64,000 nt of DNA from a virus: UHGV virus genome UHGV-1364441; one strand, 5' to 3'. The notes below the pieces were generated by a model. The model was not told the origin of the DNA. It searched no databases and saw only the letters and a program-made list of their open reading frames with translations. The position numbers and the translations under genes are program-made. Of the stretch, positions 15,222-30,185 are shown piece by piece (within the stretch, counting starts at the first letter, position 1; the number at the start of each line of letters is the position of its first letter).

Positions 15222-15614
15222 TTGAAAAAATTAGCTATTGCTTTATTGGCTGCTTTTCCTTTGCTGGCAGACGCTGGGAATCTGCAAGTGAAATGCGGTC
15301 AGTTTGATATAAAAATCTATCCAAACGCTATATTTCTGAACGGGAATAAGGTCGATAACGCACATCGTAAAACTGAATCTGACGTAATGAGTTATGTGTT
15401 CCAGGAATATGCAGAGATGGGAGGCACTTATACGCTGTACTCGCTTGATGTTCCTTCTCGCGGTGATATGACATTATCCCATCAATGGCAGAATGCCGAT
15501 GGCGAAGCTCTGCGCGAGGTGAAGACAGAAAAATGTGGCACTTTCCATTCTTTTGAGGGTAAAGCGCCAAATGTTAAATCTGTGCTTGAAAAACAGCGTG
15601 CAGGTGAGTTTTAA
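15222..15614 (+). CDS. Secreted hypothetical protein
   Basis: Signal peptide MKKLAIALLAAFPLLADA; GGAGG RBS; TTG start. Confidence 0.6.
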   Translation: MKKLAIALLAAFPLLADAGNLQVKCGQFDIKIYPNAIFLNGNKVDNAHRKTESDVMSYVFQEYAEMGGTYTLYSLDVPSRGDMTLSHQWQNADGEALREVKTEKCGTFHSFEGKAPNVKSVLEKQRAGEF

Positions 15615-15671
15615 CCAGTATTAATTATGCCGCCCCACCTTATAGCGGAGTGGGGCGGATTGTTCCCATTG

Positions 15672-15839
15672 TTATTTTTTTCTTTTCATTTTCATGGATT
15701 GTTTACAGGCATAAGCCAACGCCTTAGCTTTCACTTCATCCAGTTTCCCTGTAATCACTTCTTTTCCGAGAGTGACAAACCAGTCATAGCAACCGCCAGT
15801 GATGTTCTGGATTTGATAATTCAGGTAGCGAACGGTCAT
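15672..15839 (-). CDS. Small protein, 55 aa (MTVRYLNYQIQNITGG...KRKK), not in ORF track
   Basis: Own translation; ATGA-coupled to an upstream 31-aa ORF. Confidence 0.4.
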   Translation of the reverse strand: MTVRYLNYQIQNITGGCYDWFVTLGKEVITGKLDEVKAKALAYACKQSMKMKRKK

Positions 15840-15931
15840 TTTGATACTCCCTCCAGTTTTGATGGGAGCAAAGAACGCAGGTTATTGCGTGAGTAGACGG
15901 TGAGTGATGGGAAAAGTTTGTAATTGTTCAT
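15836..15931 (-). CDS. Tiny ORF, 31 aa (MNNYKLFPSLTVYSRNNLRSLLPSKLEGVSK)
   Basis: Canonical AAGGAG 6 nt upstream; stop overlaps the next ATG. Confidence 0.3.
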   Translation of the reverse strand: MNNYKLFPSLTVYSRNNLRSLLPSKLEGVSK

Positions 15932-15979
15932 AGTGACTCCTTGCTTTCGAAGCCGTCACAGACTGTTCCACGGTCTGGT

Positions 15980-16046
15980 GGCGGCGCAATACAGGTTGGA
16001 ACACCGTGAGTCAACGGGGGCTTTTAGCCACCTGTATTGCGCTGCC
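15980..16046. repeat. 17-bp inverted repeat (GGCGGCGCAATACAGGT / ACCTGTATTGCGCTGCC, 1 mismatch) with 33-nt spacer
   Basis: Read directly; lies between the Ref-like gene and the small ORF pair. Confidence 0.4.
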
Positions 16047-16156
16047 ATAACTATGACATTGGCAATCATACGAAATCCTTGAGGATTTGTCTCGTTGCGT
16101 CGAGCGGTGAACCAATCTAATCAAAATGTACAATCAGTAAATTTCAAACTCAACAT

Positions 16157-16177
16157 AAAATGTTAGAAAATTAATTC
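16157..16177 (+). promoter_or_regulatory. Operator-like motif AAAATGTTAGAAAATTAATT overlapping the Ref-like gene stop
   Basis: Instance of the recurrent TGTTAGAAA motif. Confidence 0.5.
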
Positions 16178-16749
16178 ACCATTTCTTGCACCGTCTGATA
16201 GAGCGTCATCTCTTCGGCATTGTGCCGTATAAAATCTGCTTTCCCGCCTATTTTTCCATCAGCATGAACAGGAACCAACCAGGGATATTGTTCGCGGATC
16301 TCTGCTGGCGCTGCGTGCTGGTGGTGCCATTTACACAAAGGGAGAACGTATTTATGGGCATCTTTAGCCGTTCTGCCAAATATGTGGTGGAGAGATACGA
16401 CAGGGCTATGCTTCCCGTGAAGATGGCAGGCAATACAGGGGAGTTTGCCTATAGCGTCCTGTATCCGGCGCTCTTCTGCTGTGAGTGATCTCCCTTTTAA
16501 TCCGCGTGACGGGCGCGTTTTTTTGGGGAGGGCTGACGCCGCCCTCTCTCTTCTGCGCTGTTCACTTTGCCTCACTTTTTCAAGTTTCTTTTGACGATAT
16601 TCAGGCGATGCGGCTTTTTCCCTTGCGCGTTGCTGCTGGCGTTGAGCCTGCTGAAGACGTTTTGCCCTTTGCTCTTCCCGCCATTCCGGATCAGCCAGTT
16701 TTTGCATGGCTTTTTGTCTCTGTTTCTCCCAATAACTCTGTCTCTGCAT
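16171..16749 (-). CDS. Ref-like HNH endonuclease (P1 recombination enhancement function type)
   Basis: Highly basic, K/R/E/Q-rich N-terminal half; C-terminal Cys/His cluster (CIACHLHG ... HHIFGR ... LPLCKWHH). Confidence 0.6.
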   Translation of the reverse strand: MQRQSYWEKQRQKAMQKLADPEWREEQRAKRLQQAQRQQQRAREKAASPEYRQKKLEKVRQSEQRRRERAASALPKKTRPSRGLKGRSLTAEERRIQDAIGKLPCIACHLHGKHSPVVSLHHIFGRTAKDAHKYVLPLCKWHHQHAAPAEIREQYPWLVPVHADGKIGGKADFIRHNAEEMTLYQTVQEMVN

Positions 16750-16795
16750 GTTGGCTGCCTCTTACTTATCAGCGATTTTTTTATGATTGATCATC

Positions 16796-16830
16796 TTTGT
16801 TAGATATTCAAAATTGATTTTCTAACATAA
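16796..16830. promoter_or_regulatory. Operator-like inverted pair TTGTTAGA-N15-TCTAACA upstream of the Ref-like gene
   Basis: Read directly, 45-80 bp upstream of start 16749. Confidence 0.5.
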
Positions 16831-17022
16831 AACATTAATATCAGTCGCTGTTTACTGTTTGGAGGACATGATGCTTATAGCCTTAAGTGCGATCCACCAG
16901 CCACCTGTGAATGAGATCGGCCTGTTTTATGTGCTGTTTTTCGGCGCGTTGGCGCTACTTGAGCTTGGTATTGAGCTTTTTGCAGTGCTTATGTTTTGCG
17001 TCACGATGCTGGGGAAATTTTG

Positions 17023-17646
17023 ATGGTGAAACGTGTTTTGAAAATTTACATCGCGGGTCCGATGACTGGTTATCCAGATTACAACCGCGCGGCGTTTAAT
17101 GCGAAGGCGAGTGAGCTGACGGCTGAAGGGCATATCGTTCTGAATCCAGCGGTGTTACCTGGTGGCCTTTGTCAGAGTGAATACATGGATATTTGCCTGG
17201 CAATGGTGCGTTCTGCTGATGCTATCTATCTGCTTAAGGGCTGGGAAGCGTCCGCAGGAGCACGAGCAGAACACGCCCTGGCTGAAAAACTGGAGCTGAC
17301 GGTAATTTATGAAGCGCCATCTGACACAGATTGCAGAATGGCAGCGCATATTTACCGCGAACTGGTCGATGCGTTACGTGATGTTGCTATTGAATGTCAC
17401 GGCACGGATCAGCTTCGCGCTCGCTTAAGCAATACCCTTTCCAGTTACCTGTCTTTAGCCGAAGGATACAACCTCCGACAGCGGAGAATGGTCAAATTAA
17501 TCACGCGTTTATCTCAATCCCTGGCAAATGCCGAACCAACTAATCCGCTACCTAATGACGCAATGAATTATCTGAAGTCATGCGGCGTTGTTTCTGAAGA
17601 TGCAGTTCGTTTTGTGGAGTTTATGTCTCAGAGGATGTCGGCGTGA
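17023..17646 (+). CDS. DUF4406 / nucleoside 2-deoxyribosyltransferase-like protein
   Basis: KIYIAGPMTGYPDYNRAAF ... NPA ... AIYLLKGWEASAGARAEHALA pattern; ATG 17023 preferred over track TTG 16996. Confidence 0.65.
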   Translation: MVKRVLKIYIAGPMTGYPDYNRAAFNAKASELTAEGHIVLNPAVLPGGLCQSEYMDICLAMVRSADAIYLLKGWEASAGARAEHALAEKLELTVIYEAPSDTDCRMAAHIYRELVDALRDVAIECHGTDQLRARLSNTLSSYLSLAEGYNLRQRRMVKLITRLSQSLANAEPTNPLPNDAMNYLKSCGVVSEDAVRFVEFMSQRMSA

Positions 17647-17960
17647 GCTGGCGGGGATGGGGAAGGGCGGAAATCATGATACTCCGCCAGTGCGCCGGAA
17701 CTATGACAGTCGAGACTATTGGGAGACTGATCGGACGTACCGGTGGCGCAGTCAGGACTAAAGCGCGGCAACTGCGGATCAGCATGATTCTGAAAGGAGA
17801 CTTTCACCAGTCAGCCAAATACCGGCAGAGCGATATAGAACTGGCGCGGCAGCTTCATCAGTGTGGTGTTCCCCGCCGTGAGATCGCAGAAAAACTCGAA
17901 ATGCCCCTGGGAATGATTAATCAGTACGTTTATTTCGAAAGGAGAGTGCATGAAGTCTGA
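17643..17960 (+). CDS. Small HTH DNA-binding protein
   Basis: Two HTH-like segments; GTG start overlapping the upstream stop. Confidence 0.45.
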
Positions 17961-18312
17961 AGGTTTAACGCCCGCACAACTGGCAGAGCGTAACGCTGAA
18001 TTACCCAGGATTACCCAGGAAAAAGCCTTCCACATACTCGAACGATTAGAAACGCTCGCTACGGAGGAGAAGATATCCCCGGAGATGCTGGTCGAGTGCA
18101 GCCGTGTGATATTGCGTCGCAAGAACGACATCGCGCGGCTGACATCTGGCGCACCATCCGTATCAGCCAGTCCAACGCTTTATTGCAGCTTCTGCAACAA
18201 ATCCCAGCACACCGTTAAAAAGTTAATTGCCGGGGACAACGTTTTCATCTGCAACGAGTGCGTGAAAGATTGCAACAACATTATCCAGGAAGAGCAAAGG
18301 GAATCAGCATGA
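17950..18312 (+). CDS. Protein with C-terminal ClpX-type C4 zinc-finger domain
   Basis: [39 protein letters not shown] closely parallels the ClpX N-terminal zinc-binding domain; no AAA+ module follows. Confidence 0.65.
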
Positions 18313-19025
18313 AATTTTCCAAATTTTCTGAGTTGGTGAATCGTATTTTGTCCAACAACCACAGCCATCGTCGCGATATGGATGTAACGATCGTTGTTCA
18401 TTCGCCTGGCAGCATTGGTTCAACACCTTCAGTTGAGGTTCAGTCAATTCACGCTGGTTTTGATTGGGATTCCGGGAAAGTGCTGATTTTCCCAGCACAG
18501 CCACTGACCACGCTAACACCAGAACAGATTACTGATATCACGGATAGTGTGCGCAAAGGTCAGTCTTGGCACGCATATCAGGAATACAAGAAGCATAAAG
18601 AGCAGTTGGAAAAATTATCGATTGAACTTGATGCCGCAAAACAGCGCATTGCAGAACTGGAGAGCGAACGCGTGGTGCTGGCGGCGGAGAATGTGGAGCT
18701 GAAGTCTGTGCACCCTCAACCATTCGGAGCTGAGATGATGAAGGCTCTTGATGCGTATGAGAAGCATCAGGATGAAGTGCCAGAGACAGGAATGCTCAAT
18801 GCATTTTTCATCTTGCGCGACAGCATCCGTGTTGAAACCCCAGCCACCGACGCTTTCCTGGCTGAAGTGCGTGCGCAGGGGGTAGAGATGTACGCAGATA
18901 ACCTCGACAACGCAGCAGACGACGCAGAACGAGGTGGTTTTGATTATGCCGTTAAGTTTCTACGCAGTGAAGCGTCTGGTGTACGTTTGTTCGCCGACCA
19001 GCTTCGCAAAGGAGGCAACCAGTGA
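18309..19025 (+). CDS. Coiled-coil protein sharing a C-terminal [11 protein letters not shown] block with the 22301-22999 product
   Basis: Start at ATG 18309 (ATGA overlap with upstream stop). Confidence 0.5.
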
Positions 19026-19297
19026 ATATCGACACGACAATAACGATCGATACGCTCCTAAATACCGGTCTGGCACTTCTCGGTTGGTTTTACATCATGT
19101 TCAGTGCGGGGAAGTGGGCGGCCTCTGTTTTTCTAAAGCAGTGGGGAAAGCGCCGCAAACAGGAAAAACGCCAGAAAGCGTTGGAGGCGTTCTATGACGC
19201 ATTTGAACTTAGCCGCATTGAACCAGGCACAACAGCGAGGATAGCGACAAAAGGCGACCTGATGATAGTGATGTTCAGACAGGAGAAAACCAAATGA
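19022..19297 (+). CDS. Small membrane protein
   Basis: One predicted TM helix; GTG start. Confidence 0.4.
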   Translation: MNIDTTITIDTLLNTGLALLGWFYIMFSAGKWAASVFLKQWGKRRKQEKRQKALEAFYDAFELSRIEPGTTARIATKGDLMIVMFRQEKTK

Positions 19298-19518
19298 CAG
19301 AACAGACGATGACAAATCGCGAACTTGTTGATGCCGCGATTGAACTTGCTGGCGATTTTTATTCCATGATGGGTTACGAGCATCGACCTGGTTTTAAGTA
19401 TTGGGAGTCACCGCATCCGCAAGAACAACAGGTGTTTGAAATGGCCTGCCGTGCTTTTGAGGTTATTCGCGGTTCTGATGTGATGGATGCCGTTGCCGAC
19501 TTGGAGGATGAAGAGTGA
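19294..19518 (+). CDS. Hypothetical protein (74 aa)
   Basis: Coupled ORF in same operon. Confidence 0.45.
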   Translation: MTEQTMTNRELVDAAIELAGDFYSMMGYEHRPGFKYWESPHPQEQQVFEMACRAFEVIRGSDVMDAVADLEDEE

Positions 19519-19826
19519 GCATCATTAAAGAAATGCCGGTAGAACGTGATGAATATGGCTGCTGGACACATCCGGAGTATGAAAAGTTTTGCGCAGGTCG
19601 TGAATATATATCCACTGAGGAATTTGACGCCTGGATGAAGGAAAATAATCTTCAGTGGACTATTCGCAGTATGGATGAAGATGATTTTGATCTGGACGCA
19701 GCTGGTCCCGATATTGCCGCCTGGGAACCGGAGCGACCAGAGGGTGAAGGCTGGTTTGTTGGCTCTATTCATGACACTGAAGATGGTCCAGTTTGTATCT
19801 GGCTGCGGGAGAAGGTTGCCGCATGA
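19515..19826 (+). CDS. Hypothetical acidic protein (103 aa)
   Basis: Coupled ORF in same operon. Confidence 0.45.
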
Positions 19827-20515
19827 TCCAGGCTCTGCATGAAGTGAATTTATATAGCCGTATTGATGGTTCAGGCTACAGAAACATATGGGTTGTTGGT
19901 GATTTGCACGGTTGCTACACCCTACTTATGAATGAACTCCATCGTGTGGATTTTGACCCGACACAGGATTTACTGATATCGGTTGGCGACCTTATCGATC
20001 GCGGCGCCGAAAATGTTGAATGCCTGGAGCTATTGCAGATGCCCTGGTTCAGGGCAGTAGTGGGGAACCATGAGCTGTTGATGCTCGATGCGTTAAGTCC
20101 TGATGGCAACGTGAATAACTGGCTAATGAATGGCGGTCAATGGTTCTTCATGCTGGACGCTGATCAGGAAATATTAGCCAGGGCGCTGGTGGAGTTGGTA
20201 AGACGACTGCCCTATATCATTGAGTTGAACACCGGGCAAGAAACTATCGTTATAGCCCATGCCGACTATCCGGATAATGAATATCAATTCGGTAAGGAGG
20301 TGCCGCTTTTCAACGTTGTCTGGGCGCGCGAGCGTATCAGTGATTCGATAGATGGCATTGGTGGAGAAATCACAGGCGCAGATCGCTTTATCTTTGGGCA
20401 CACACCGGTACGAAGACCAAAAGCATACTGGAATCAGCACTACATAGACACGGGCGCGGTTTTTTGCGGAAATCTGACGCTAATGCAGGTGAAGGGAGGA
20501 CAGCTTAAAGTCTGA
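19823..20515 (+). CDS. Serine/threonine protein phosphatase (lambda PP / PrpA-like metallophosphatase)
   Basis: GDLHG, GDLIDRG, GNHE motifs; ATG 19823 overlaps upstream stop. Confidence 0.85.
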
Positions 20516-20535
20516 TCAAATCATTTACGCACTCA

Positions 20536-20574
20536 AAATGTGTTAGAACATTGATTTTAGTTTTCTAACATATT
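20536..20574. promoter_or_regulatory. Operator-like inverted pair TGTTAGA-N16-TCTAACA between the phosphatase and DUF968-like genes
   Basis: Read directly. Confidence 0.5.
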
Positions 20575-20612
20575 ATTTTACCGCTCGGAACAAAACAGAG
20601 TCGGTATACATT

Positions 20613-21608
20613 ATGAGTGCAATAATCACACCTCATTTCGTAAACGGAGCTGGTGTGGCTGTCTTTCCGGTAGACAAGCCCACCAGTAACTACATTGGCG
20701 TAGGTCGCCGTTTCATTATCTCCCCACTTCCGCGTGAACAGGCTGAAAACACGCCAGATGGCGTAGTGGATCTGAATTATTCGCTGGTTGCCAACCAGTC
20801 TCTGAAACCGTTTTTTCAAAGCGAGCGCGTATTTAACGCGTTGGGCGGTGAAGATTCGCTTGTTCATTGGGTAAGTTCCAATATCCACGATTGCCAGGCG
20901 CACGATAAGCGCGATTGCAGCCACCAGCTAACCACTCATTTCTATAACGGCTCTGCCGTTCGCCTGTGCTGGAAGCATGATGCGGAATACATGATGAAGG
21001 GGTACAGCAAGCTGGACGACCAGTTATCCCTGAATCGTGCCAACTGGGTTATGAACTGGGCTGCGAGCGAGTTAAAACTACCGCCAGAACGCGATCTGAG
21101 CATGGTTGAACTCACTTTTTGGGCCATTCGCCGGAATCTGAAAGATGAGCTGCCAGATGAAGCCGGTCGCATTGCATTTTGTCAGCCAAAAACTGAAATC
21201 CCTACCGGTACGCTGAAAGAATCAGATATCACCTGGGAGCACAGTACCCGCGAGCTGGTGGACATAACCGCAGAGCAGATCGTCAACCTGTCTGTAGATG
21301 AGGATTCCGGCCTGCTTTATATGCGCCGACCAAAAGCGGTCCTCGGTAAAAGCCCGGCTTATCTCCGGTTTGTGGTTTCTCGTCCGTGCATCGGATGCGG
21401 TGGCAAAGTTAACCACCCGTTCATATACCGCGCCCGCTCGTTAAACGAACACGACCGCTGGGCTGTTCCTCTTTGCGATGACTGCGCCAGAAGCGCAGAA
21501 AACGATGTCCGGGCATGGGAAAAAGCACATGGCATACGCCTTTACGTAGCCGCTAACCAGCTTTTTGACTTCGCCATCGAGCGCGGAGTGATCACTTTCA
21601 ATAACTGA
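20613..21608 (+). CDS. DUF968-like prophage protein with C-terminal Cys/His (HNH-like) cluster
   Basis: CIGCGG ... H ... CDDC motif; general resemblance to YdfU-type lambdoid proteins. Confidence 0.5.
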   Translation: MSAIITPHFVNGAGVAVFPVDKPTSNYIGVGRRFIISPLPREQAENTPDGVVDLNYSLVANQSLKPFFQSERVFNALGGEDSLVHWVSSNIHDCQAHDKRDCSHQLTTHFYNGSAVRLCWKHDAEYMMKGYSKLDDQLSLNRANWVMNWAASELKLPPERDLSMVELTFWAIRRNLKDELPDEAGRIAFCQPKTEIPTGTLKESDITWEHSTRELVDITAEQIVNLSVDEDSGLLYMRRPKAVLGKSPAYLRFVVSRPCIGCGGKVNHPFIYRARSLNEHDRWAVPLCDDCARSAENDVRAWEKAHGIRLYVAANQLFDFAIERGVITFNN

Positions 21609-21624
21609 TGAGGTGGATCAAAAA

Positions 21625-22314
21625 ATGAAAGAACGCGGGATGATTTTTAACGATGAGATGGTCAGGGCCATCCTCGAAGGAGGGAAGACGCAGACTCGCC
21701 GACCTGTAAAAAATGTCAGGGCCGATAACTGCCTGGTTATCCGTAAACCGACAAAGAAACGCAATGGTGTCTATACCCACGTTATGGATGCACCTGAACA
21801 TGGTTTATGCCCGTTCGGTAACGTTGGTGATCGCATATGGGTCCGTGAGGCGTGGGCGATATTAGGCAATGAGGATGGTTGCAGTGTGGACTGGAACGAC
21901 AACCTTTGTCGTGGCGATGAGAAGAACGCAGCAAGGATTTATCGGGCCAGTTGTGAGCAAAAGCCGGGTGATTACGGCTTGTGGTCGATACCCGATGATG
22001 CCGACTGGAAACCTCACACTGTGAATGAAAAATTTGATGGCGGGTGGTGTCCATCAATTCACATGCCGCGCTGGGCATCGCGCATTCTTCTGGAAATTAC
22101 CAACGTGCGCGTTGAGCGGTTGAACGATATCAGCGAATGCGATGCAAGGGCTGAGGGCGCACCAACAGAATCGACCCTCATTGGCGATAAGCATTACCCA
22201 AGTTTCCGTAGCCTATGGAAATCAATTTATGGCGAAGATAGTTGGAACGCTAATCCCTGGGTGTGGGTAATCGAGTTTAAGCGTATTCAGGGGGCAACCA
22301 GTGAGCAAAATTAA
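21625..22314 (+). CDS. Conserved prophage hypothetical protein
   Basis: EMVRAILEGGKTQTRR N-terminal pattern; ATG 21625 with GAGGTGGA RBS. Confidence 0.5.
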   Translation: MKERGMIFNDEMVRAILEGGKTQTRRPVKNVRADNCLVIRKPTKKRNGVYTHVMDAPEHGLCPFGNVGDRIWVREAWAILGNEDGCSVDWNDNLCRGDEKNAARIYRASCEQKPGDYGLWSIPDDADWKPHTVNEKFDGGWCPSIHMPRWASRILLEITNVRVERLNDISECDARAEGAPTESTLIGDKHYPSFRSLWKSIYGEDSWNANPWVWVIEFKRIQGATSEQN

Positions 22315-22999
22315 CTATCAAGAACTGCGCGAGGCGGCGGAACAGGCAACGCAAGATGAATGGGTAGCATATATTTTGCCGGGTCATAACGGCATTTATC
22401 CTGCGCGCACGTCTGAGGGTAGGCATTGCGGATACTTTATTGACTGGCCTGGCATTGATGGACAAAGGAATGCTGGTGCTAATGCCCGTTATATCGCGGC
22501 CATCCCACCAAAAGTTGCGCTGGCACTCCTGGGCGAAATTAAGCGCCTGGAGGACACAAATATTGATGCTATGTGCCGAATAGCACCGCTTGAGACTAAG
22601 CTCGCGGCTCTGGTGGCAGAGAACGCCGGGCTGAAACTCGCAATGGCTGTAACTCTTGATCATGTGTCGGTCACGGATGCAGGGCAGGCCGGAGTTGCTG
22701 CAATGATTATCAACGATGCTCTGCACCACAGCGAAACCCCAGCCACCGATGCTTTTCTGGCTGAAGGGAAGACTGAAGCACGCAAGGAAGGCGCTTATTT
22801 TGTGGCGAACAGAATGTTGGCAGCCTGGAAAGCTGGTTTTATTGATGATACTGCGAAGAACGCTGCGGATATTGCCCGGATGATCCTTACCTCTACTGAG
22901 TTTATGACTAATGCGCCGGAAAGCCATTTTGATCGCTCATTCTCTGATGGCGTTCTCGAAGATATCGCCGAACAGCTTCGTAAAGGAGTCATCCAATGA
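22301..22999 (+). CDS. Ea22-like prophage protein (paralog 1)
   Basis: N-terminus MSKINYQELREAAEQATQDEW; coiled-coil middle. Confidence 0.5.
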   Translation: MSKINYQELREAAEQATQDEWVAYILPGHNGIYPARTSEGRHCGYFIDWPGIDGQRNAGANARYIAAIPPKVALALLGEIKRLEDTNIDAMCRIAPLETKLAALVAENAGLKLAMAVTLDHVSVTDAGQAGVAAMIINDALHHSETPATDAFLAEGKTEARKEGAYFVANRMLAAWKAGFIDDTAKNAADIARMILTSTEFMTNAPESHFDRSFSDGVLEDIAEQLRKGVIQ

Positions 23000-23499
23000 G
23001 CAAGATTGACTATCAGGCACTGCGTGAGGCGGCAGAGAAAGCAACGTGGGGAGACTGGGACTCATATAAACCACACCGTGGCGCACGTGGTTATGAGGTC
23101 CGACTAAGTAGTCAGGCCATCGCGCAACACGTTCTGAAAAACAACGCTGAATTTATTGCTGCCTTTAATCCAAAGATTGCATTGGCACTACTGGATGAAC
23201 GGGAAAGGAACCAGCAATACATCAAATCCCGCGACCAGGAGAACGAGGATATTGCGCTAACGGTAGGGAAGCTGCGCGAGAAGCTGGAAGCCGCAGAGAA
23301 GCGCATTGCAGAGTTAGAAAGTGGTTCTCAGGCACAAAAGTTAGTTGAAGCAATCATTGTTGCGATAGAAAACGAACAGGAAAGGCTTTTTGATGAAGAT
23401 TACCTAATGGATTCGAAAGAATGCATTGACGTAATTCGTGAAGAAGTAAAGCGATGGAATGATTCCCGTGCCGCTGGCATTCGCATCAAAGGAGAGTGA
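22996..23499 (+). CDS. Ea22-like prophage protein (paralog 2)
   Basis: N-terminus MSKIDYQALREAAEKATWGDW, nearly identical to paralog 1. Confidence 0.5.
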   Translation: MSKIDYQALREAAEKATWGDWDSYKPHRGARGYEVRLSSQAIAQHVLKNNAEFIAAFNPKIALALLDERERNQQYIKSRDQENEDIALTVGKLREKLEAAEKRIAELESGSQAQKLVEAIIVAIENEQERLFDEDYLMDSKECIDVIREEVKRWNDSRAAGIRIKGE

Positions 23500-23500
23500 T

Positions 23501-23695
23501 ATGGCAACCAACAACCGTAAAGCAAAGATTCTGTTAGTTCGTAGAAACGCTCCTGGCGTCTGGCAGTGGGTGAGACTCAGCAACCGACGGATGGGGTTGA
23601 TGAAATATTACGGGATGATGGATTGTGGTTTTTGCAAAAAGCCCAGCGCGGCGCAAAACCGCTGGAAAAACCATTTGCGCACTAAAGGAGAGTGA
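23501..23695 (+). CDS. Small hypothetical protein (64 aa)
   Basis: ATG preceded by AAAGGAGAGTGAT RBS block that is duplicated at 23697. Confidence 0.35.
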   Translation: MATNNRKAKILLVRRNAPGVWQWVRLSNRRMGLMKYYGMMDCGFCKKPSAAQNRWKNHLRTKGE

Positions 23696-23696
23696 T

Positions 23697-23906
23697 ATGG
23701 CTATTGCCGCAAGTTACACCATGCATCTCTATTGTGACTGCCGCCAGTGTACGGAAGGTGTATATCCAGTGCCAGACTTCGGTGAATATATCGGTACGTC
23801 ATGGGCTGGCTGTGCAAAAGAGGCACGTAAGGATGGCTGGCGAATAAGCAAAGACAAAACACGTGCTTTTGCGCCCGGGCATAAAGTTTTGAGGATTAAC
23901 AAATGA
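23697..23906 (+). CDS. Small Cys-rich protein (69 aa)
   Basis: CDCRQC ... C motif; same duplicated RBS block upstream. Confidence 0.4.
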   Translation: MAIAASYTMHLYCDCRQCTEGVYPVPDFGEYIGTSWAGCAKEARKDGWRISKDKTRAFAPGHKVLRINK

Positions 23907-24592
23907 CCACTTTAACCGACAAAGAACTGATTAAAGAAATCAAAGAGCGTATCAGCAGCCTGGACGTTCGAGACAATATTGAACGCCGGGCTTATGAAAT
24001 TGCACTGGCATCGCTGGAAGCAGATCCAGTTGCTTATATTTTCAAACATCCGGCCGGGAAATTATTCTGGGCTTTAACGGATGAAAGCAATAAAGAGCAA
24101 CCGGACGTTATTCCTGTTTATGCTGCCGCGCCTGCGTCGGTTGTGCCGGATAATGCATCAGAGCCTCTTGCTTATGCTTACAAAGAGCTTACGCCTGAGA
24201 TTATGCGCAACCAGGCTGCCGAATCCAATCGCGGTAATGAGTGGACCGGCAATCCTGATATTGATAACGCCATCATCATGCTCGACCGCATAGATACGCT
24301 GGAAAATTGCGATGATGACCGTATTGAGGCTGTTAAGGCTGTTTTGCGTAGACTGGCTGGCAACTCTCCGGTAACTCCGGATGGTTGGATAAGCTGTAGT
24401 GAGCGAATGCCGGATAGCAAAACAGCCGTTCTTGTTGCCAGGGAGTTTGACAGGAAAGGTGACTGGCGAATGAAATGGGCGACTTACATCCCGGGGCATC
24501 CTGACGCTAATGATGGGTGGATAATTCCAGGTGCGTCGTGGATACCATCACACTGGATGCCGCTACCAGAACCGCCGCAGGAGGCGAAATGA
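23903..24592 (+). CDS. DUF551-like prophage protein
   Basis: C-terminal W...HWMPLPEPP pattern. Confidence 0.5.
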   Translation: MTTLTDKELIKEIKERISSLDVRDNIERRAYEIALASLEADPVAYIFKHPAGKLFWALTDESNKEQPDVIPVYAAAPASVVPDNASEPLAYAYKELTPEIMRNQAAESNRGNEWTGNPDIDNAIIMLDRIDTLENCDDDRIEAVKAVLRRLAGNSPVTPDGWISCSERMPDSKTAVLVAREFDRKGDWRMKWATYIPGHPDANDGWIIPGASWIPSHWMPLPEPPQEAK

Positions 24593-24849
24593 TGGATGTA
24601 AAAGAGAAGGTTTTGCAGGTGATGCGTTCCCGGGCTGCCCTGCAAGATAAAGCTCTCGGCGGGGAATATCCATTCAGGATGGCAACCTGGAATTTGCGGT
24701 TGGCAATGGAGAAGGAATTTCCTGATGAAGAATGGCGCTCGGCAGATTTGCGCAAAATTCTTATGGAGCTGGCTAAAGACGGAACAGTATCCAAAGATAC
24801 CCATGCCAGCCGGATTGGTCAGGCGGTATGGAGACTGGAGGTGAGGTAA
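24589..24849 (+). CDS. Hypothetical protein (86 aa)
   Basis: ATGA-coupled start. Confidence 0.4.
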   Translation: MMDVKEKVLQVMRSRAALQDKALGGEYPFRMATWNLRLAMEKEFPDEEWRSADLRKILMELAKDGTVSKDTHASRIGQAVWRLEVR

Positions 24850-25130
24850 TGGCTAACCTGCAACTTGCCGTCAAAGGTGAATACTTCGATGACATGATTC
24901 GCGGGGAGAAAACGGAAGAGTATCGCCTGTGTAATGGCTACTGGAATAAGCGAATCATGTTCCGGGAATATGACCGCCTGATTATCACAAAGGGATATCC
25001 GAAGCGCGACGATTCCAGTCGCAGAATAGACGTCCCGTATAACGGATATGAAATCAAGACAATCACACATCCGCACTTCGGTGATAAACCGGTAAAGGTG
25101 TACGCGATAAAGGTGAATATCAATGGCTAA
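24849..25130 (+). CDS. Hypothetical protein (93 aa)
   Basis: TAATG-coupled start at MANLQLAVKGE. Confidence 0.4.
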   Translation: MANLQLAVKGEYFDDMIRGEKTEEYRLCNGYWNKRIMFREYDRLIITKGYPKRDDSSRRIDVPYNGYEIKTITHPHFGDKPVKVYAIKVNING

Positions 25131-25575
25131 ATTTCAAAGAGCTATTATTTTTCTGGCTATGTTATCAGCCAGTCATTTATCCCACGCGTCAGTTATTGCC
25201 GCTGGAGCGGCGGCAACAGCGGCGGCAACAGCGGCGGCAACAGCAGCGGCAACAGCAGCGACCACGGCGGCAGTAAATGCTTCTATCGCCAGCGAGCAAG
25301 CGCGGCGTGCTGCAACCAATGCTTCCGCAAACACCACCACGGTATCAGTCACACAATCAAAACCGAATATAGGCTTTGTTACTTGCGGAAAGAGGAATAG
25401 CGAAATGGTTGGTTCTCTTGGTTGTGTAATGTGGCAAGAGGACGATAGACCTGAAATCCCGTGGAACTCATGGCCTGGTTACATTCTTGGTAAGAAGATA
25501 CCCACCAGCTATGAAGTAAATGCTATTTCATTCGACCAATATAACGGTGTTGCAACGGTGTATTTTCTGTATTAA
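25123..25575 (+). CDS. Secreted protein with Ala/Thr repeat (AAAT)n
   Basis: Signal peptide then AAATAAATAAATAAAT encoded by a 12-bp tandem repeat. Confidence 0.5.
   Translation: MAKFQRAIIFLAMLSASHLSHASVIAAGAAATAAATAAATAAATAATTAAVNASIASEQARRAATNASANTTTVSVTQSKPNIGFVTCGKRNSEMVGSLGCVMWQEDDRPEIPWNSWPGYILGKKIPTSYEVNAISFDQYNGVATVYFLY
25207..25260 (+). repeat. Tandem 12-bp repeat GCGGCGGCAACA x3 plus GCAGCGGCAACA and a partial unit
   Basis: Read directly inside the 25123-25575 CDS. Confidence 0.7.
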
Positions 25576-25587
25576 CACGGAGTAATT

Positions 25588-25881
25588 ATGTGGCGTGGTA
25601 ATAGTCATGGCAGAAGCCAGATGATACTTACCGAATATACGTTAGACCACAAAACCAATAAATCACGCTCAGTATATTTGCTTCGGCACAATAGCCGCGT
25701 AAGGAATACCGTGCTGGAGCAAAATCTGACCGTTGAAATGGATAATTTTGGGAACTTCAAGCCAACAATAGCGCTTGATGATTTTCCGCGTGGTTTAAGC
25801 GAAAGAGAAGCAATGCTTAAATTAGCAGAATGGCTACAGAGATTAAGTATTGCTATTGAAGATAACTGGAGCAATCCGTAA
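25588..25881 (+). CDS. Hypothetical protein (97 aa)
   Basis: ORF with downstream coupled small ORF. Confidence 0.4.
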   Translation: MWRGNSHGRSQMILTEYTLDHKTNKSRSVYLLRHNSRVRNTVLEQNLTVEMDNFGNFKPTIALDDFPRGLSEREAMLKLAEWLQRLSIAIEDNWSNP

Positions 25882-26039
25882 TGAAAAATAAAAAGTTTTG
25901 GTCTACGTTTTTATTTGTCTGTGTTTGTGGCTTTTTTGTTGCTTTAGCTGGTGGCGTAGAATGGGGAACGGAGAACTGCGGCGTAATGGTTGGTGACACC
26001 TTATTACTCGCGGGCATGTTAGCTTTTATTCGTTCATGA
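25881..26039 (+). CDS. Small membrane protein, 52 aa (MKNKKFWSTFLFVCVCGFFVALAGG...), not in ORF track
   Basis: Own translation; TAATG overlap with upstream stop. Confidence 0.35.
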   Translation: MKNKKFWSTFLFVCVCGFFVALAGGVEWGTENCGVMVGDTLLLAGMLAFIRS

Positions 26040-26121
26040 GAAAGATTCAAACCACCAGCAATATTATTACCCCTGTCGTTACGGCAGGGGGCTGCAACAC
26101 TGTGTAATTGAGTAATTTTAT

Positions 26122-26496
26122 ATGATGACATTCAAACATTTTCTTGACCGTCCATTATGGGCGGCAGCCGCAGGCTATGACTTTAATTATATGGATTGCA
26201 TGTCTTATACCGCCAATGCATACGACCATTCCTTCAGTCTGCTGTTTAATTCTTTAAGAATATTGCCGCAAACAGAAGTTGGAGAGCTTCATTTATGGCT
26301 ATTGGGCTTTATCGCGGCTGGAGTTGGTATTGCTGTATGGCCTTTTATTTTCTGGCTGGTGGCTGTTGTAGTGTGGTTTAAGTGCAAGGCATACCGGAAT
26401 AAGTATTTCTTAGGTGATGGAATGACTGATATTGCCAAAAGGAACATTGAAAATTGGACCAAAGAATGCGAAAAGAAATGGAGCAACAAGAAATGA
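26122..26496 (+). CDS. Membrane protein
   Basis: Hydrophobic segment LHLWLLGFIAAGVGIAVWPFIFWLVAVVVWF. Confidence 0.45.
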   Translation: MMTFKHFLDRPLWAAAAGYDFNYMDCMSYTANAYDHSFSLLFNSLRILPQTEVGELHLWLLGFIAAGVGIAVWPFIFWLVAVVVWFKCKAYRNKYFLGDGMTDIAKRNIENWTKECEKKWSNKK

Positions 26497-27209
26497 CCAG
26501 AATCACTAAATTGCGCATATCAGAGATTATTGCACGCATCGAAATGTATGGACACGGTGCTGGATATACGGCAGATGAGGTGTTGGAGCTTGCCAAAATA
26601 GCGTTAGCAACCTGCAAGGATGGTGAAACCATAAAGCTGATTGACTTGTTGGTGCAGGAGCTGCCAAAGCGTGGAGGGTGGCCTGATGATGTGCTCGATT
26701 GTCGCATGGTTAGAGAGGACGAGTATGAACCATCATATGGCCTCTTTGCTTTTGGCTCTGACCCAGCAAAAAGCCTGCGAGGACGCCATTTTTGCCTTGA
26801 GGTCAGACTCCCGATAAGTAACCTTGATCGTGAGGAATACACGGAAATAATTTCGCGCAAACAATACGAAGAGGCTCTAGAAGCATCCAGTAAGTTAAAT
26901 TTTGAGCAATGGCTGGAACAGCAACGCGGGAAAATCGATGTGGACTGTGGTTGTGTGTCCACTGAAACATTCATGCACTGGCTGCGGGTAGCTTACGAGG
27001 CTGGCAACCATCCGGATTTTCCGGATAGTTCCCAACAATCGCCCAAGAAAAGCGTAAAAACCACTCTGGAAAGAGGCTATCTTGAGGCCGCATTAAAGAT
27101 TAAGCCGGGCCATACGCTAGGCGTCATTGATGCCATGTTGGTTCATGAAATGGCGAAGGCTTTATTGCCGCTGGTGGCTGATAAAATTCCGAATAAAGCC
27201 GATATCTGA
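26493..27209 (+). CDS. Hypothetical protein (238 aa)
   Basis: ATGA-coupled start at MTRITKLRI. Confidence 0.5.
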   Translation: MTRITKLRISEIIARIEMYGHGAGYTADEVLELAKIALATCKDGETIKLIDLLVQELPKRGGWPDDVLDCRMVREDEYEPSYGLFAFGSDPAKSLRGRHFCLEVRLPISNLDREEYTEIISRKQYEEALEASSKLNFEQWLEQQRGKIDVDCGCVSTETFMHWLRVAYEAGNHPDFPDSSQQSPKKSVKTTLERGYLEAALKIKPGHTLGVIDAMLVHEMAKALLPLVADKIPNKADI

Positions 27210-27248
27210 TCACCATGCTAAAATCCCCTCAATTCACAGAGGGGATTT

Positions 27249-27521
27249 TTGTATATGTTGCATAGAGTTTTATGGAAAAGCGTTATTGTCGGCGCGATCT
27301 TGGCTATGTCTGGGTGTGCTATGGTGCAATACAATGACGGAGAAAAGGTTAGCATCCAGTCAGATGGTTGGTATGGCCTGGATAGCCTGCAAAAAACAGC
27401 GGATAAAGCCTGCCAGCAATACGGAAAGTCTAAAGCCGTATATCAGCATAGTGCTAACGCTAATCCTCATCTTGCGCCCGGAACAGGCGTTCAGAATACC
27501 ATCTGGAAATGTGAGCCTTAA
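27249..27521 (+). CDS. Small lipoprotein
   Basis: Signal peptide with lipobox-like LAMSGC. Confidence 0.5.
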
Positions 27522-27523
27522 AT

Positions 27524-27775
27524 ATGAGCGACTGGAATATTGCAGCTAAAAGTCAGGAAGAACGGGATAAGGTTAACGTTGATCTGGCTGCCAGCGGTGT
27601 GGCGTACAAAGAGCGATTGAACATACCTGTCATAGCTGAACAGGTAGCCCGCGAGCAACCAGAGAATCTGCGCACCTATTTCATGGAACGGCTACGGCAC
27701 TACCGGCAGTTAAGCCTCCAGTTGCCAAAAGGGAGCGATCCGGTGTATCAGAACGAGGATGCACCAAAAAAATAA
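27524..27775 (+). CDS. Hypothetical protein (83 aa)
   Basis: ORF directly after the lipoprotein gene. Confidence 0.4.
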
Positions 27776-27860
27776 CGGCAAGATGGGGGAGAAATGTGAT
27801 TAGCCCCCAGCGTGGCGCGCCTACAAACCCAGCTTTCACAAACTATGCCTTTTCAATGTA

Positions 27861-27880
27861 TACTGTATGAATAAACAGTA
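27861..27880. promoter_or_regulatory. LexA (SOS) box TACTGTATGAATAAACAGTA
   Basis: Perfect CTGT-N8-ACAG palindrome about 20 bp upstream of the HumD-like start. Confidence 0.7.
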
Positions 27881-27898
27881 TCATTAAGGTAAAACGCT

Positions 27899-28288
27899 AT
27901 GGGCTTCCCTTCTCCTGCGGCGGATTATGCAGAGAGCCGCATTTCTCTTGATCAGCAACTAATCAGACATCCTTCCGCGACCTACTTCATGCGGGCGGCA
28001 GACAGCCATCACCGTGAGGGAATATTGCAAGGTGCTTTGCTGGTGGTTGATTCCTCACTTACTCCGGTTGATGGTTCACTGCTTATATGCGCTATGGAGG
28101 GTGAATATCGCATAAAGAGATACAGGAAATATCCGCGCCAGCACCTGGAGGATTTAAGCACCGGGAAGAAAGAGGCGTTACCAGTAGATGACGATGGATG
28201 CACGGGCAGTAATGCTGTTTTTGGTGTGATCACTTATGTCATTAATGATGCCAGAAGTGGGGAGTTTGATTATAGACCTGTGATTTAA
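27899..28288 (+). CDS. humD: UmuD'-like protein (P1 HumD type, S24 LexA/UmuD fold)
   Basis: FPSPAADY ... SATYF ... LLVVDS ... EYRIKR pattern parallel to UmuD without the N-terminal cleaved tail. Confidence 0.7.
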   Translation: MGFPSPAADYAESRISLDQQLIRHPSATYFMRAADSHHREGILQGALLVVDSSLTPVDGSLLICAMEGEYRIKRYRKYPRQHLEDLSTGKKEALPVDDDGCTGSNAVFGVITYVINDARSGEFDYRPVI

Positions 28289-28333
28289 GGCGCATAAAGA
28301 AGCCCGCCAGACCAGGCGGGCTTTTTGTTGATA

Positions 28334-29428
28334 TCATTCAATGATTTTTTCGGCTGTCAGCCAGCTAATTTCATGCCTGTCTTTCGGCGGTTTTAGCATG
28401 TGAGCATATTCAGCGACATGCTCCCACGGAATTGTTTTTGCCCACTCAACGATAGCATTGTGATCTGCAGTGAAGAGTGGAATAGTGTGCGATTTCAACC
28501 ATTCTAATGTCGTGACGCCATGTTTTTTGGCGTGGTGCTGCGCATGATGCCGGGCTATCACTCGTAATGGCATTGTCCATTCACTACCATCAGGCATCGA
28601 AAAGCGCATTGTCTTCGGCATATCTGATTCAAGAACAGCCTCCCTAATACCAGGGAACTCACCAAGAATCATACGACGATAGTCATCACTATTTCGCCCG
28701 CCATACCTTTCGGCAAAATGATCAAGATATTCTTGGGTAATAAATGGTGAATCCTCCGCACTCAGCTTAATGGCTTTATATACACCACTCGTATTATCTT
28801 CAGCTAAAGCACGTCCATGATGTGAATCATAAAAAAAGCCTATTTCCTCTGGTGACGGAATTGAAGTGAGCAATATGCGTGAATCACCACTAGTCATGCT
28901 TGCCCACACAATGCTGTATGCCCGATCGCTGATATGTGCGGAATCCACAATAATGAATAAAAGATGGTCGGCGTAGTGACCTGCAATGCTATCTTCATAG
29001 TTAAGGCGGTAGTTACAAAAGCACATTCCCCAAAATTCATTGAACATCAGACCGCTATCACCGACCTTAAAATACTCAATGATAAAAGGTTGTTTTTTCA
29101 GCAATGCCTCCCAACATTGCCACACATATGCAACAATTCCTCTTTTGCAAGCATTTGATTTTGGATAAACAATTACTGTCCGGGAATCAGGATACATAAT
29201 CGTATAAAGGGTACTAATAACAGCAAGCACTTGCGGTCGTCCGATCCCATACGGAGTGGTGACAGTAGCTTTTGCATTATTGGGCTGTATAGCTTCAACA
29301 ATTTGTTGTTGCTGGTGGCTTAAATCAATATCAAACAATTCTTTTGCTGCCAGTACCCAATTGTCTTTATATTTCTCCACCAGCGACAGCCAGCGCGGAT
29401 CTTTATAAATATTGCTCTTAGTCGCCAT
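28334..29428 (-). CDS. Terminase-large-subunit paralog with degenerate ATPase motifs
   Basis: Resembles the PacB-like protein at 34728-36236 (shared FYDSHH block), but Walker A is TTPYGIGRPQV (no GKS/T) and Walker B is IIVDSAH. Confidence 0.55.
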   Translation of the reverse strand: MATKSNIYKDPRWLSLVEKYKDNWVLAAKELFDIDLSHQQQQIVEAIQPNNAKATVTTPYGIGRPQVLAVISTLYTIMYPDSRTVIVYPKSNACKRGIVAYVWQCWEALLKKQPFIIEYFKVGDSGLMFNEFWGMCFCNYRLNYEDSIAGHYADHLLFIIVDSAHISDRAYSIVWASMTSGDSRILLTSIPSPEEIGFFYDSHHGRALAEDNTSGVYKAIKLSAEDSPFITQEYLDHFAERYGGRNSDDYRRMILGEFPGIREAVLESDMPKTMRFSMPDGSEWTMPLRVIARHHAQHHAKKHGVTTLEWLKSHTIPLFTADHNAIVEWAKTIPWEHVAEYAHMLKPPKDRHEISWLTAEKIIE

Positions 29429-30185
29429 CTGCCACTTCCTTAACTTCTTCTTTGGCCTGTTCTGCAATCGCCGCACGGCATTTCGCCCTGGCTGTAGCGA
29501 TTGCTTCAGCTCGCACATCGTCTGGAATCGTTGACGTGATATACATATCCAGTTCTTCGGCACGGAATACTGTTTGGTCCAGATATTCGCGTAGCATCCA
29601 GGTAAATTCGAAATCACACGCGATAATCTCTGCGCTACCTTCTGCACCATTTGGGAAATGAATAAATGCCTGTTTAGCCAAACCGATAACACGACATGCG
29701 GTTGCCAAAACAGCGACAACCAGGTTTACATTTTCACACGCTACGGGCTGATTAACGCCGGAGATTACTCCATTTAACTGTCGGTTATATGGAAGGTAGT
29801 TTGAGATGCGTTCTACGCGCCATGTGCCAGTCAGGCTGCCATTTTTAAATATAATTGGTGTAACGGATAGCCCAAGCTCGCGTATAAGTCGTTGCGCTAT
29901 AGCAGGATCATTAAACAGGTCTAATGCTACACATTCGAAAGACTGCGCAAGGGCAAACAGTTCTTCCAGAGAGTAGTCTTTGCCCCTGGCGGTGATGTAA
30001 CGACGAACGCCGCTGTCTGCATCACTCCATATAGCTACGCCATGCTCTTCATTCAGCTCTTCATTAAAGCCGAGATACGTCATGATAGTGCGTTCAATCG
30101 TGTCAAACGGCAGTGACATGTCGGCGTTAACAGCCACCAGCAGGCCATTACGCAAGCGGTATTGAATTGTTTTAGTGCTTTCCAT
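29418..30185 (-). CDS. Hypothetical protein (255 aa)
   Basis: Stop overlaps the start of the terminase paralog. Confidence 0.5.
   Translation of the reverse strand: MESTKTIQYRLRNGLLVAVNADMSLPFDTIERTIMTYLGFNEELNEEHGVAIWSDADSGVRRYITARGKDYSLEELFALAQSFECVALDLFNDPAIAQRLIRELGLSVTPIIFKNGSLTGTWRVERISNYLPYNRQLNGVISGVNQPVACENVNLVVAVLATACRVIGLAKQAFIHFPNGAEGSAEIIACDFEFTWMLREYLDQTVFRAEELDMYITSTIPDDVRAEAIATARAKCRAAIAEQAKEEVKEVADGD

Follow-up and report, generated by a model that had tools for sequence, protein, structure and literature searches.

A repeated gene junction in the variable accessory operon of a D6-like phage-plasmid

Ea22 proteins are mosaics with a three-part architecture and variable C-terminal domains (PMC10834534). 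The Ea22 protein of phage lambda has pro-lysogenic activity and forms a tetramer in which the C-terminal domain is dimeric (PMC7093339, PMC10834534). K/R-G-E was reported to end all Ea22 proteins, across unrelated C-terminal domains, and its significance was unknown (Dydecka et al. 2020; PMC7093339). According to a citation in PMC2327257, Clark et al. (2001) proposed that lambdoid phages exchange modules through short conserved flanking sequences. Here we describe an accessory gene block with Ea22-family genes in a stretch of 64,000 nucleotides of the virus genome UHGV-1364441 (the window; coordinates are those of the window unless another sequence is named). The block resembles the variable region of phage D6, and within it a short string is repeated at the boundaries of small genes. 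We consider it likely that the block is a variable accessory operon of the D6-like type, in which the repeated string serves as a reusable gene junction where cassettes are swapped.

The 18-mer AAAGGAGAGTGATATGGC occurs exactly twice in the window, at 23488–23505 and 23684–23701, and no match was found in 100 shuffles. The repeat extends to 24 nucleotides (nt) with 92% identity, and the two copies, referred to below as type-A junctions (Table 1), are direct repeats lying 196 bases apart. In each copy the bases AAA GGA GAG TGA are read in frame as the K-G-E and stop of the upstream gene, and ATG GC follows after a one-base gap. The Shine-Dalgarno sequence AAGGAG is found six bases before the downstream ATG (23501 and 23697). 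Each copy thus supplies the ribosome site and the start of a small open reading frame (ORF), as the initial annotation had proposed; the two ORFs encode proteins of 64 and 69 amino acids (aa). The coding signal of the 69-aa ORF is seen in 61 synonymous versus 16 non-synonymous codon differences among 11 variants, third codon positions making up 28 of the 43 variable columns. A third copy of the 11-mer AAAGGAGAGTG, at 17938–17948, lies in another frame of the gene at 17643–17960 and is the ribosome site for the gene of a ClpX-type zinc-finger protein. RNA folding of the two type-A copies gave no common structure (z of +1.4 for copy 1, worse than shuffles, and −1.85, a weak structure, for copy 2), and a structured RNA element at the junction was therefore rejected.

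The initial annotation had called the repeat a duplicated ribosome-site cassette. The cassette of ribosome site and start is indeed repeated, but it was not duplicated locally. According to that explanation, a tandem duplication within this genome would have given rise to the two 18–24-nt copies and the paralogous genes, with the small ORFs as diverged duplicates, and the direct orientation and close spacing of the copies, each in front of a small ORF of similar size, would be in line with it. Comparison of the 64-aa and 69-aa proteins, however, gave no alignment; the two are unrelated and are therefore not a duplicated gene. Only 24 bases are common to the copies, and their flanks are unrelated. 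Moreover, in other phages each copy occurs separately with its own flanks, and the junction is found there in about 50 other flank combinations. Local duplication, largely refuted by units that are not homologous beyond the 24-nt repeat, is rejected as very improbable.

The spread of the type-A junction was followed by an exact-match scan of viral contigs for the 18-mer, which was found in at least 120 contigs; these were selected for carrying the exact string, and the statements that follow refer to the contigs listed. Their flanks form 25 upstream and 16 downstream clusters, joined in about 50 combinations. The upstream proteins are unrelated save for their last residues (...AGIRIKGE, ...RTKGE or ...GKGE), and the ORFs downstream are unrelated to one another and come from many families. 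Conservation reaches 12–25 bases upstream of the 18-mer (commonly GCTGGCATTCGCATC) and ends right after ATGGC. In six contigs the window's gene for Ea22-like protein 2 is followed by a different downstream gene, and the same kind of replacement is found at copy 2 in nine contigs; in all 15 the homology to the window stops at the last base of the 18-mer, that is, at its 3' edge. The type-A junction is thus a linker in the sense that the same short sequence stands between differing modules and that homology breaks there. Its anatomy, its spread and its exact breakpoints are direct observations.

The genes around copy 2 illustrate this further. Of 40 cases of the 69-aa gene, 24 have the 64-aa gene in front and 7 have a GIRIKGE-tailed gene directly in front, which means that the 64-aa cassette is present or absent between two copies of the junction. 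An exact-string search for the GIRIKGE tail joined to the window's own 69-aa start found none, and the same adjacency was found with a synonymous variant of the start. Most homologues of the 64-aa protein begin with MKNRKA behind another junction. A fusion of the type-A junction to the 64-aa ORF, giving MATNNRKA, is seen in the window and in one contig; the first three codons (MAT) are derived from the junction. Judged from these comparisons, the 64-aa ORF of the window is an uncommon recombinant. In several viral contigs (L117, L047, L037 and L091) the gene in front of the 64-aa homologue ends in ...KRKPTASQNRRKKG.., which resembles the C-terminus of the 64-aa protein itself (KKPSAAQNRWKNH) and suggests tandem paralogues of the small basic protein in other phages.

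Lambda ea22 ends in GCTGGCATTCGCATCAAAGGAGAGTGA, which encodes the tail AGIRIKGE. Its 27 terminal bases are identical to those of the window's gene for Ea22-like protein 2, with GGCATTCGCATC in front. Whether the peptide or the nucleotides are conserved was tested on 80 loci that were chosen by the Ea22 N-terminus and not by the junction, and that contain 60 distinct ends. KGE accounts for 33 of the 60 and is spelled AAA GGA GAG in all 33, as against the 4% expected from the codon usage of the block, in whose genes GGA makes up 17% of the Gly codons. An ATG is found one or two bases after the stop in nearly all KGE ends, the exceptions being lambda's own (GATCGG) and one GTG start. The Ea22 ends other than KGE have different AGGAG-containing tails, which likewise stand before an overlapping or adjacent start. 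Elsewhere the third residue of the tail varies between E, D, G and A while AAAGGAG is kept.

These results bear on the possibility that the (A)GIRIKGE or K/R-G-E tail has a function as a C-terminal peptide, for example as a tag for interaction or degradation, and that the DNA repeat merely reflects selection on the protein. K/R-G-E does end all the Ea22 proteins examined in the literature (PMC7093339), and the conserved tail has eight residues, more than the ribosome site would call for. A peptide motif is nevertheless hard to reconcile with 33 KGE ends lacking synonymous variation, with a third residue that changes over an unchanged AAAGGAG, or with a start codon that follows so closely in nearly every KGE case except for lambda and the GTG start. 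The tail is also carried by unrelated proteins (the 64-aa basic protein, DUF551-like proteins and others), and at 17938 the same bases precede an ATG in another reading frame. We consider this possibility quite unlikely. We conclude that K/R-G-E is the ribosome site of the next gene read in frame and a by-product of that site. The additional conserved bases of GGCATTCGCATC, beyond the need of a ribosome site, indicate that the junction itself is of common descent. A search of the literature on Ea22 and Shine-Dalgarno sites found no paper. Our conclusion offers a simple, testable explanation for an Ea22 end that the literature lists as unexplained.

In lambda the type-A junction lies on the minus strand at 29847–29870 (848–871 of locus L126), with TGAGATCGG instead of TGATATGGC and no start codon, and 191 bases separate it from ea8.5. 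The lambda copy appears, by its sequence, to be an orphaned junction left by loss of the downstream cassette.

A second type of junction, CTTCGYAAAGGAGKCAWCCARTGA, is also repeated in the window (type B; Table 1). The tails ...QLRKGGNQ and ...QLRKGVIQ of the two proteins that end in it are spelled CTTCGYAAAGGAG..CCARTGA, in which AAAGGAG is the ribosome site and the next start overlaps as GTGA or ATGA. Both proteins also share an internal block of 11 residues, and a scan for this block found it in at least 118 viral contigs. Among those listed, the block is followed by 22 unrelated clusters of C-terminal cores, and an overlapping-start (xTGA) junction ends 61 of the 64 distinct cores. At the type-B junction 26 core clusters meet 20 clusters of downstream genes, and it too is a linker between differing modules. 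The commonest gene after it is canonical Ea22 (57 of 111), so that the tandem pair of the window represents the usual arrangement. The type-B junction CTTCGCAAAGGAGGCAACCAGTGA (tail LRKGGNQ), together with the 11-residue block, would play the same linker role around variable C-terminal cores.

The initial annotation recognized two tandem Ea22-like genes with near-identical N-termini, the first of which shares the 11-residue block with an otherwise different protein encoded at 18309–19025. Both tandem genes (22301–22999 and 22996–23499) pass the cut-off of 27 bits of the Pfam family PF13935 (Ead_Ea22). Their N-termini are similar (14 of the first 17 residues, and 86% identity over 37 nt of DNA), but near-identical overstates a relationship that amounts to 41% identity over about 100 residues overall. 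The shared block was correctly described; it corresponds to 34 nt with 94% identity, at 18834–18867 and 22733–22766. The 18309–19025 protein did not prove to be otherwise different: it aligns to the 22301–22999 protein with 27% identity over about 235 columns (BLASTP E-value of 2e-7), and both match phrog_368 nearly end to end. The 18309–19025 protein has no match to Pfam PF13935, and the match of its residues 17–238 to phrog_368 along with the BLASTP result indicates that the kinship runs through the coiled coil and the C-terminal part only. On the basis of these alignments, the block holds three Ea22-family paralogues built from different modules. The shuffling of paralogues is thereby supported, with three family members instead of two plus an unrelated protein.

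The modules are arranged as follows. Paralogue A (18309–19025) has a different N-terminal module (phrog_6026), a coiled coil, the 11-residue block and a variable C-terminal core, and Ea22-like protein 1 has the canonical Ea22 N-terminus followed by a coiled coil, the 11-residue block and a variable core. Ea22-like protein 2 shares 50% identity with lambda Ea22 in the N-terminus and coiled coil, and its C-terminal domain is a different one. The segment 22604–22766, covering the coiled coil and 11-residue block of Ea22-like protein 1, is 92% identical to positions 77843–78005 of phage D6, which are part of orf91, the gene of a 118-aa protein located in the first half of the operon of D6. One and the same module therefore occupies different genes and positions in the window element and in D6.

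By its sequence, the window is a D6-like, P1-related plasmid prophage (phage-plasmid). Its alignment to phage D6 (NC_050154) covers 54,044 of the 64,000 bases, without change of order and with 84–99% identity, and the D6/P1-type genes c1, pacAB, darB, cin, tail sheath, ref, phd-doc and cre are syntenic. The closest database records are non-mobilizable Escherichia coli plasmids of about 90 kb assigned to rep_cluster_1704. A lambdoid prophage was considered and rejected, because the window has D6/P1-type synteny instead of the set of int-xis, exo-bet, cI/cro, O-P, Q and lambda-type late genes. Judging by gene content, what is lambdoid in the window is limited to accessory genes of the exo-xis/nin kind; the initial description of a lambdoid-style accessory block holds for these genes and not for the element that carries them.

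The block is flanked by ref (16171–16749, minus strand) and the hot/humD region, as in D6, and similarity to D6 breaks into short pieces across the stretch between them. A single gene array on the plus strand runs from 17023 to about 26000, with three Ea22-family paralogues, a lambda-type phosphatase, DUF968, DUF551 and DUF4752 proteins and small ORFs. Most neighbors are joined by an ATGA or GTGA overlap or by a one-base gap, and the sole sizeable gap is one of 97 bases (20516–20612). Such overlaps and one-base gaps suggest joint transcription and coupled translation, in which the stop/start arrangement would couple each gene to the next. A self dot-plot of the region, as advised in the initial annotation, showed internal repeats that are short (34, 18/24, 37 and 24 nt) and no large duplication. 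The region is an ordinary, highly shuffled mosaic accessory operon, a new combination of known cassettes in a known variable region.

Control of this operon may be exerted by a repressor. The asymmetric motif TGTTAGAAAAT has 16 occurrences in the window with at most one mismatch, against 1.5 expected. The extended consensus is approximately TA-TGTTAGAAAAT-TAATTT, and the sites are mostly intergenic and sometimes form inverted pairs. Near the block, the motif is found once in the intergenic region between ref and the DUF4406 gene, and two inverted copies lie in the gap of 97 bases that precedes the DUF968 gene. Phage P1 has scattered 17-bp C1 operators, and by analogy the motif appears to be a dispersed operator for a C1 repressor of the D6 type, for which the putative site sequence is TGTTAGAAAATTAATTT. 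The operon would then be controlled by repressor bound at these sites.

The turnover of the block is evident among relatives. Coverage of 80% or more of the whole block (17000–27800) was found in 0 of 72,556 PLSDB plasmids; the 18000–24700 core reached that coverage in 1 of 5,426 complete E. coli genomes, and pieces of it were present in 3,521. Five D6-like plasmids and D6 differ in their cassette content and in the number of Ea22-like genes. In these six elements, 31% of the points where homology ends are no more than 20 nt from a gene boundary, compared with 11.5% at random (maximum of 22.5% in 2,000 randomizations), and the remaining ones are concentrated at boundaries between domains within the Ea22-like and DUF551 genes. 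Other kinds of genes are also inserted in the same operon: that of a TnpB RNA-guided endonuclease in NZ_CP028585.2 (3755–4963 of locus L128) and that of a PAPS-reductase-family protein in NZ_LR890273.1 (7067–7939 of locus L130).

How the joints were made is the main question. Since the identical junction is found in many enterobacterial temperate phages, it would also mark the point of cassette exchange. The most likely route of this exchange would be short-homology recombination by phage or host functions, and an incoming cassette would arrive with its translation signals intact. The main rival is illegitimate recombination followed by selection, in which joints form anywhere, those at gene ends survive, and the junction is kept for its use in translation only, with no part in recombination. 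Lambdoid mosaicism is prevalently explained by this model (Juhala et al. 2000; Hendrix 2003; both as cited in PMC2327257). Many breakpoints of the D6-like plasmids do lie away from junctions, and the stop, ribosome site and start are plainly functional. The identity of the junction, however, covers bases that translation does not obviously require: GGCATTCGCATC stands in front of the ribosome site in 60 of 130 listed loci, and it is also present in about half of the Ea22 ends chosen by N-terminus, with at least ten unrelated C-terminal domains. Neither would illegitimate joining lead one to expect a single fixed base as the end of homology in 15 cases that look independent. We therefore regard it as an unlikely origin of the junction, although it probably accounts for many of the intragenic joints. 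That homologous recombination, and not selection after illegitimate joining, made the joints at the junction is what we infer.

A wider version of the homologous route can be put forward tentatively, as a possibility short of our favor. The type-A junction GGCATTCGCATCAAAGGAGAGTGAtATG, the type-B junction CTTCGCAAAGGAGGCAACCAGTGA and the 11-residue block may form a "cassette grammar", acting at the nucleotide level as portable homology arms of 25–35 bases, with K/R-G-E as a by-product. Red, RecT or Erf, or else RecA with the P1-type Ref, would use these linkers to swap genes and C-terminal domains. Such swaps would take place between lambdoid prophages and P1/D6-type phage-plasmids and would preserve translational coupling.

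Several points weigh against a reusable junction at which cassettes are exchanged by recombination. About two thirds of the homology endpoints among the D6-like plasmids are intragenic and not at junctions. The contigs with the 18-mer and those with the 11-residue block were chosen by exact string, so that their numbers are not a share of all junctions, and they are not independent, many being near-identical prophages. A ribosome site does not call for a tail as long as the eight residues of AGIRIKGE, and the peptide may have a role of its own. Homologous recombination at the junction and illegitimate joining followed by selection would both be compatible with these data. The motif count is the evidence for repressor control, which we state as a suggestion. 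Finally, the reading frame of the 64-aa ORF has only moderate support: in its aligned part, 52 synonymous and 94 non-synonymous codon differences were counted, which is still better than in the other frames.

Table 1. Features of the accessory block and related sites in the window
Feature	Coordinates	Strand	Evidence and remarks
TGTTAGAAAAT sites	7332/7351, 16161, 16817, 20541/20560, 32236, 33637, 38068, 41785, 43191, 44235, 54127, 55328
Inverted TGTTAGA...TCTAACA element with promoter-like TTGATT	16798–16829		ref/DUF4406 intergenic region; candidate repressor operator at operon head
DUF4406 protein	17023–17646	+	Pfam PF14359, E 2e-34, 118.2 bits; first gene of accessory operon
Small DNA-binding-like protein	17643–17960	+	C-terminus ...FERRVHEV (stop)
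ClpX C4-type zinc-finger protein	17950–18312	+	Pfam PF06689, E 1e-17
Ea22-family paralogue A	18309–19025	+	phrog_368, E 1e-54, residues 17–238; tail QLRKGGNQ (stop)
Type-B junction copy 1, CAGCTTCGCAAAGGAGGCAACCAGTGA	18997–19025	+	Encodes LRKGGNQ (stop); ribosome site AAAGGAGG; overlapping GTGA start
DUF4752 protein	19022–19297	+	Pfam PF15944, E 2e-41, 140.6 bits
Two small conserved phage ORFs	19294–19518, 19515–19826	+	phrog_4132, phrog_1372; ATGA/GTGA overlaps
Lambda-type Ser/Thr protein phosphatase (P1 Ppp / lambda NinI relative)	19823–20515	+	PDB 1G5B, E 2e-94; Pfam Metallophos
Inverted pair of TGTTAGAA sites	20541–20572		Candidate second operator/promoter
DUF968 protein (P1 PdcB-like)	20613–21608	+	Pfam PF06147, E 4e-45, 154.5 bits; D6 orf98 annotation
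Conserved phage protein, function not assigned	21625–22314	+	phrog_874, E 1e-90
Ea22-like protein 1	22301–22999	+	Pfam PF13935, E 2e-22, 80.5 bits; tail QLRKGVIQ (stop)
Type-B junction copy 2	22971–22999	+	End of Ea22-like protein 1
Ea22-like protein 2	22996–23499	+	Pfam PF13935, E 9e-31, 107.7 bits; tail AAGIRIKGE (stop)
Type-A junction copy 1, CGCATCAAAGGAGAGTGATATGGC	23482–23505	+	K-G-E stop of Ea22-like protein 2, AAGGAG, ATG of 64-aa ORF
64-aa basic protein	23501–23695	+	phrog_1380, E 2e-39; end ...RTKGE (stop)
Type-A junction copy 2, CGCACTAAAGGAGAGTGATATGGC	23678–23701	+	Between 64-aa and 69-aa ORFs
69-aa Cys-rich protein	23697–23906	+	phrog_926, E 8e-37
DUF551 protein	23903–24592	+	Pfam PF04448, E 2e-20, 74 bits

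The family matches of the block genes are given in Table 1. The lambda-type phosphatase and the DUF968 protein named in the initial annotation were both confirmed by their matches; residues 10–226 of the phosphatase align to residues 3–219 of 1G5B, and the motifs GDLHG, GDLIDRG and GNHE are present. The DUF551 and DUF4406 proteins are likewise real according to Pfam, with scores that, like those of DUF968 and DUF4752, exceed the gathering score, but both lie outside the 18309–23906 interval in which they had been placed. The DUF551 gene is itself a mosaic, with homology breakpoints at 24032, 24207 and 24386–24412. PADLOC profiles of anti-phage defense found 0 families among the 10 block proteins tested.

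Scans for regulatory features gave little. An Rfam scan of 15500–29000 at a permissive threshold found no family inside the block and one chance-level match to isrG. A match to the C4 antisense RNA (RF01695) was seen at 15974–16052 on the minus strand; it is sub-threshold (39.7 bits versus a gathering score of 45, E-value of 1e-4), and it lies where an immI region of the P1 type, upstream of icd/ant, would be expected. A scan for sigma-70 promoters gave fewer matches than shuffles and none that was useful inside the block.

Two ORFs further downstream on the plus strand deserve mention. A 150-aa ORF at 25123–25575 has a signal-peptide-like N-terminus and an Ala/Thr-rich run that corresponds to 5.5 copies of the 12-base tandem repeat AGCGGCGGCAAC (25206–25271, 90% matches), and its product may be an accessory protein that is secreted and varies in length. 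Of the terminator-like hairpins in the region, the strongest, with 11 pairs followed by a T run, is at 27220–27249. Directly 3' of it is a 90-aa ORF (27249–27521) with a lipoprotein-type signal (..LAMSGC..), which may be a moron that lies at the operon's end and is expressed separately.

The junction documents gene flow between integrated prophages and phage-plasmids, being common to lambda, Stx-type prophages and P1-type phage-plasmids. It is also a convenient natural substrate for testing short linkers versus illegitimate joining as drivers of mosaicism.

In summary, the system closest to the block is the orf88–orf105 region of D6 and of the D6-like plasmid prophages of E. coli, Salmonella and Shigella, which has the same position and strand. 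The variable region of D6 shares with the window the genes for DUF4406, DUF4752, the phosphatase Ppp, the PdcB-like DUF968 protein and Ea22-like proteins as well as the 63-/71-aa ORFs, with 84–97% DNA identity in the shared segments. Compared with D6, the window adds a second Ea22-like gene with the lambda-type tail, the 64-aa ORF fused to the type-A junction, the DUF551 gene and others, and it is without D6 orf92, orf99 and orf103. Lambda Ea22 resembles Ea22-like protein 2 in the N-terminus and coiled coil (50% identity), and it has the same 27 terminal bases and the same three-part architecture with swappable C-terminal domains. The window genes differ from it in their C-terminal domains and in residing in a P1-type plasmid prophage, not beside exo/xis.

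The type-A and type-B junctions are also like the linker sequences described for lambdoid phages (Clark et al. 2001, for HK620), which, so far as the citing paper conveys, are short conserved boundaries between differing modules. A literature search on linker sequences in lambdoid phages returned nothing direct, and the concept was reached through its citation in PMC2327257. In contrast to those linkers, the junction of the window is defined to the base, overlaps the gene end and the next start signals, and is common to lambdoid phages and a P1-type phage-plasmid. Integron cassettes are alike in being small promoterless genes in one orientation that are gained and lost at a repeated boundary. 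In the window, however, exchange would depend on homologous recombination of the general or phage kind. There is no integron integrase, the boundary is not an imperfect inverted repeat of the attC type, and an integron-like mechanism was rejected on these grounds.

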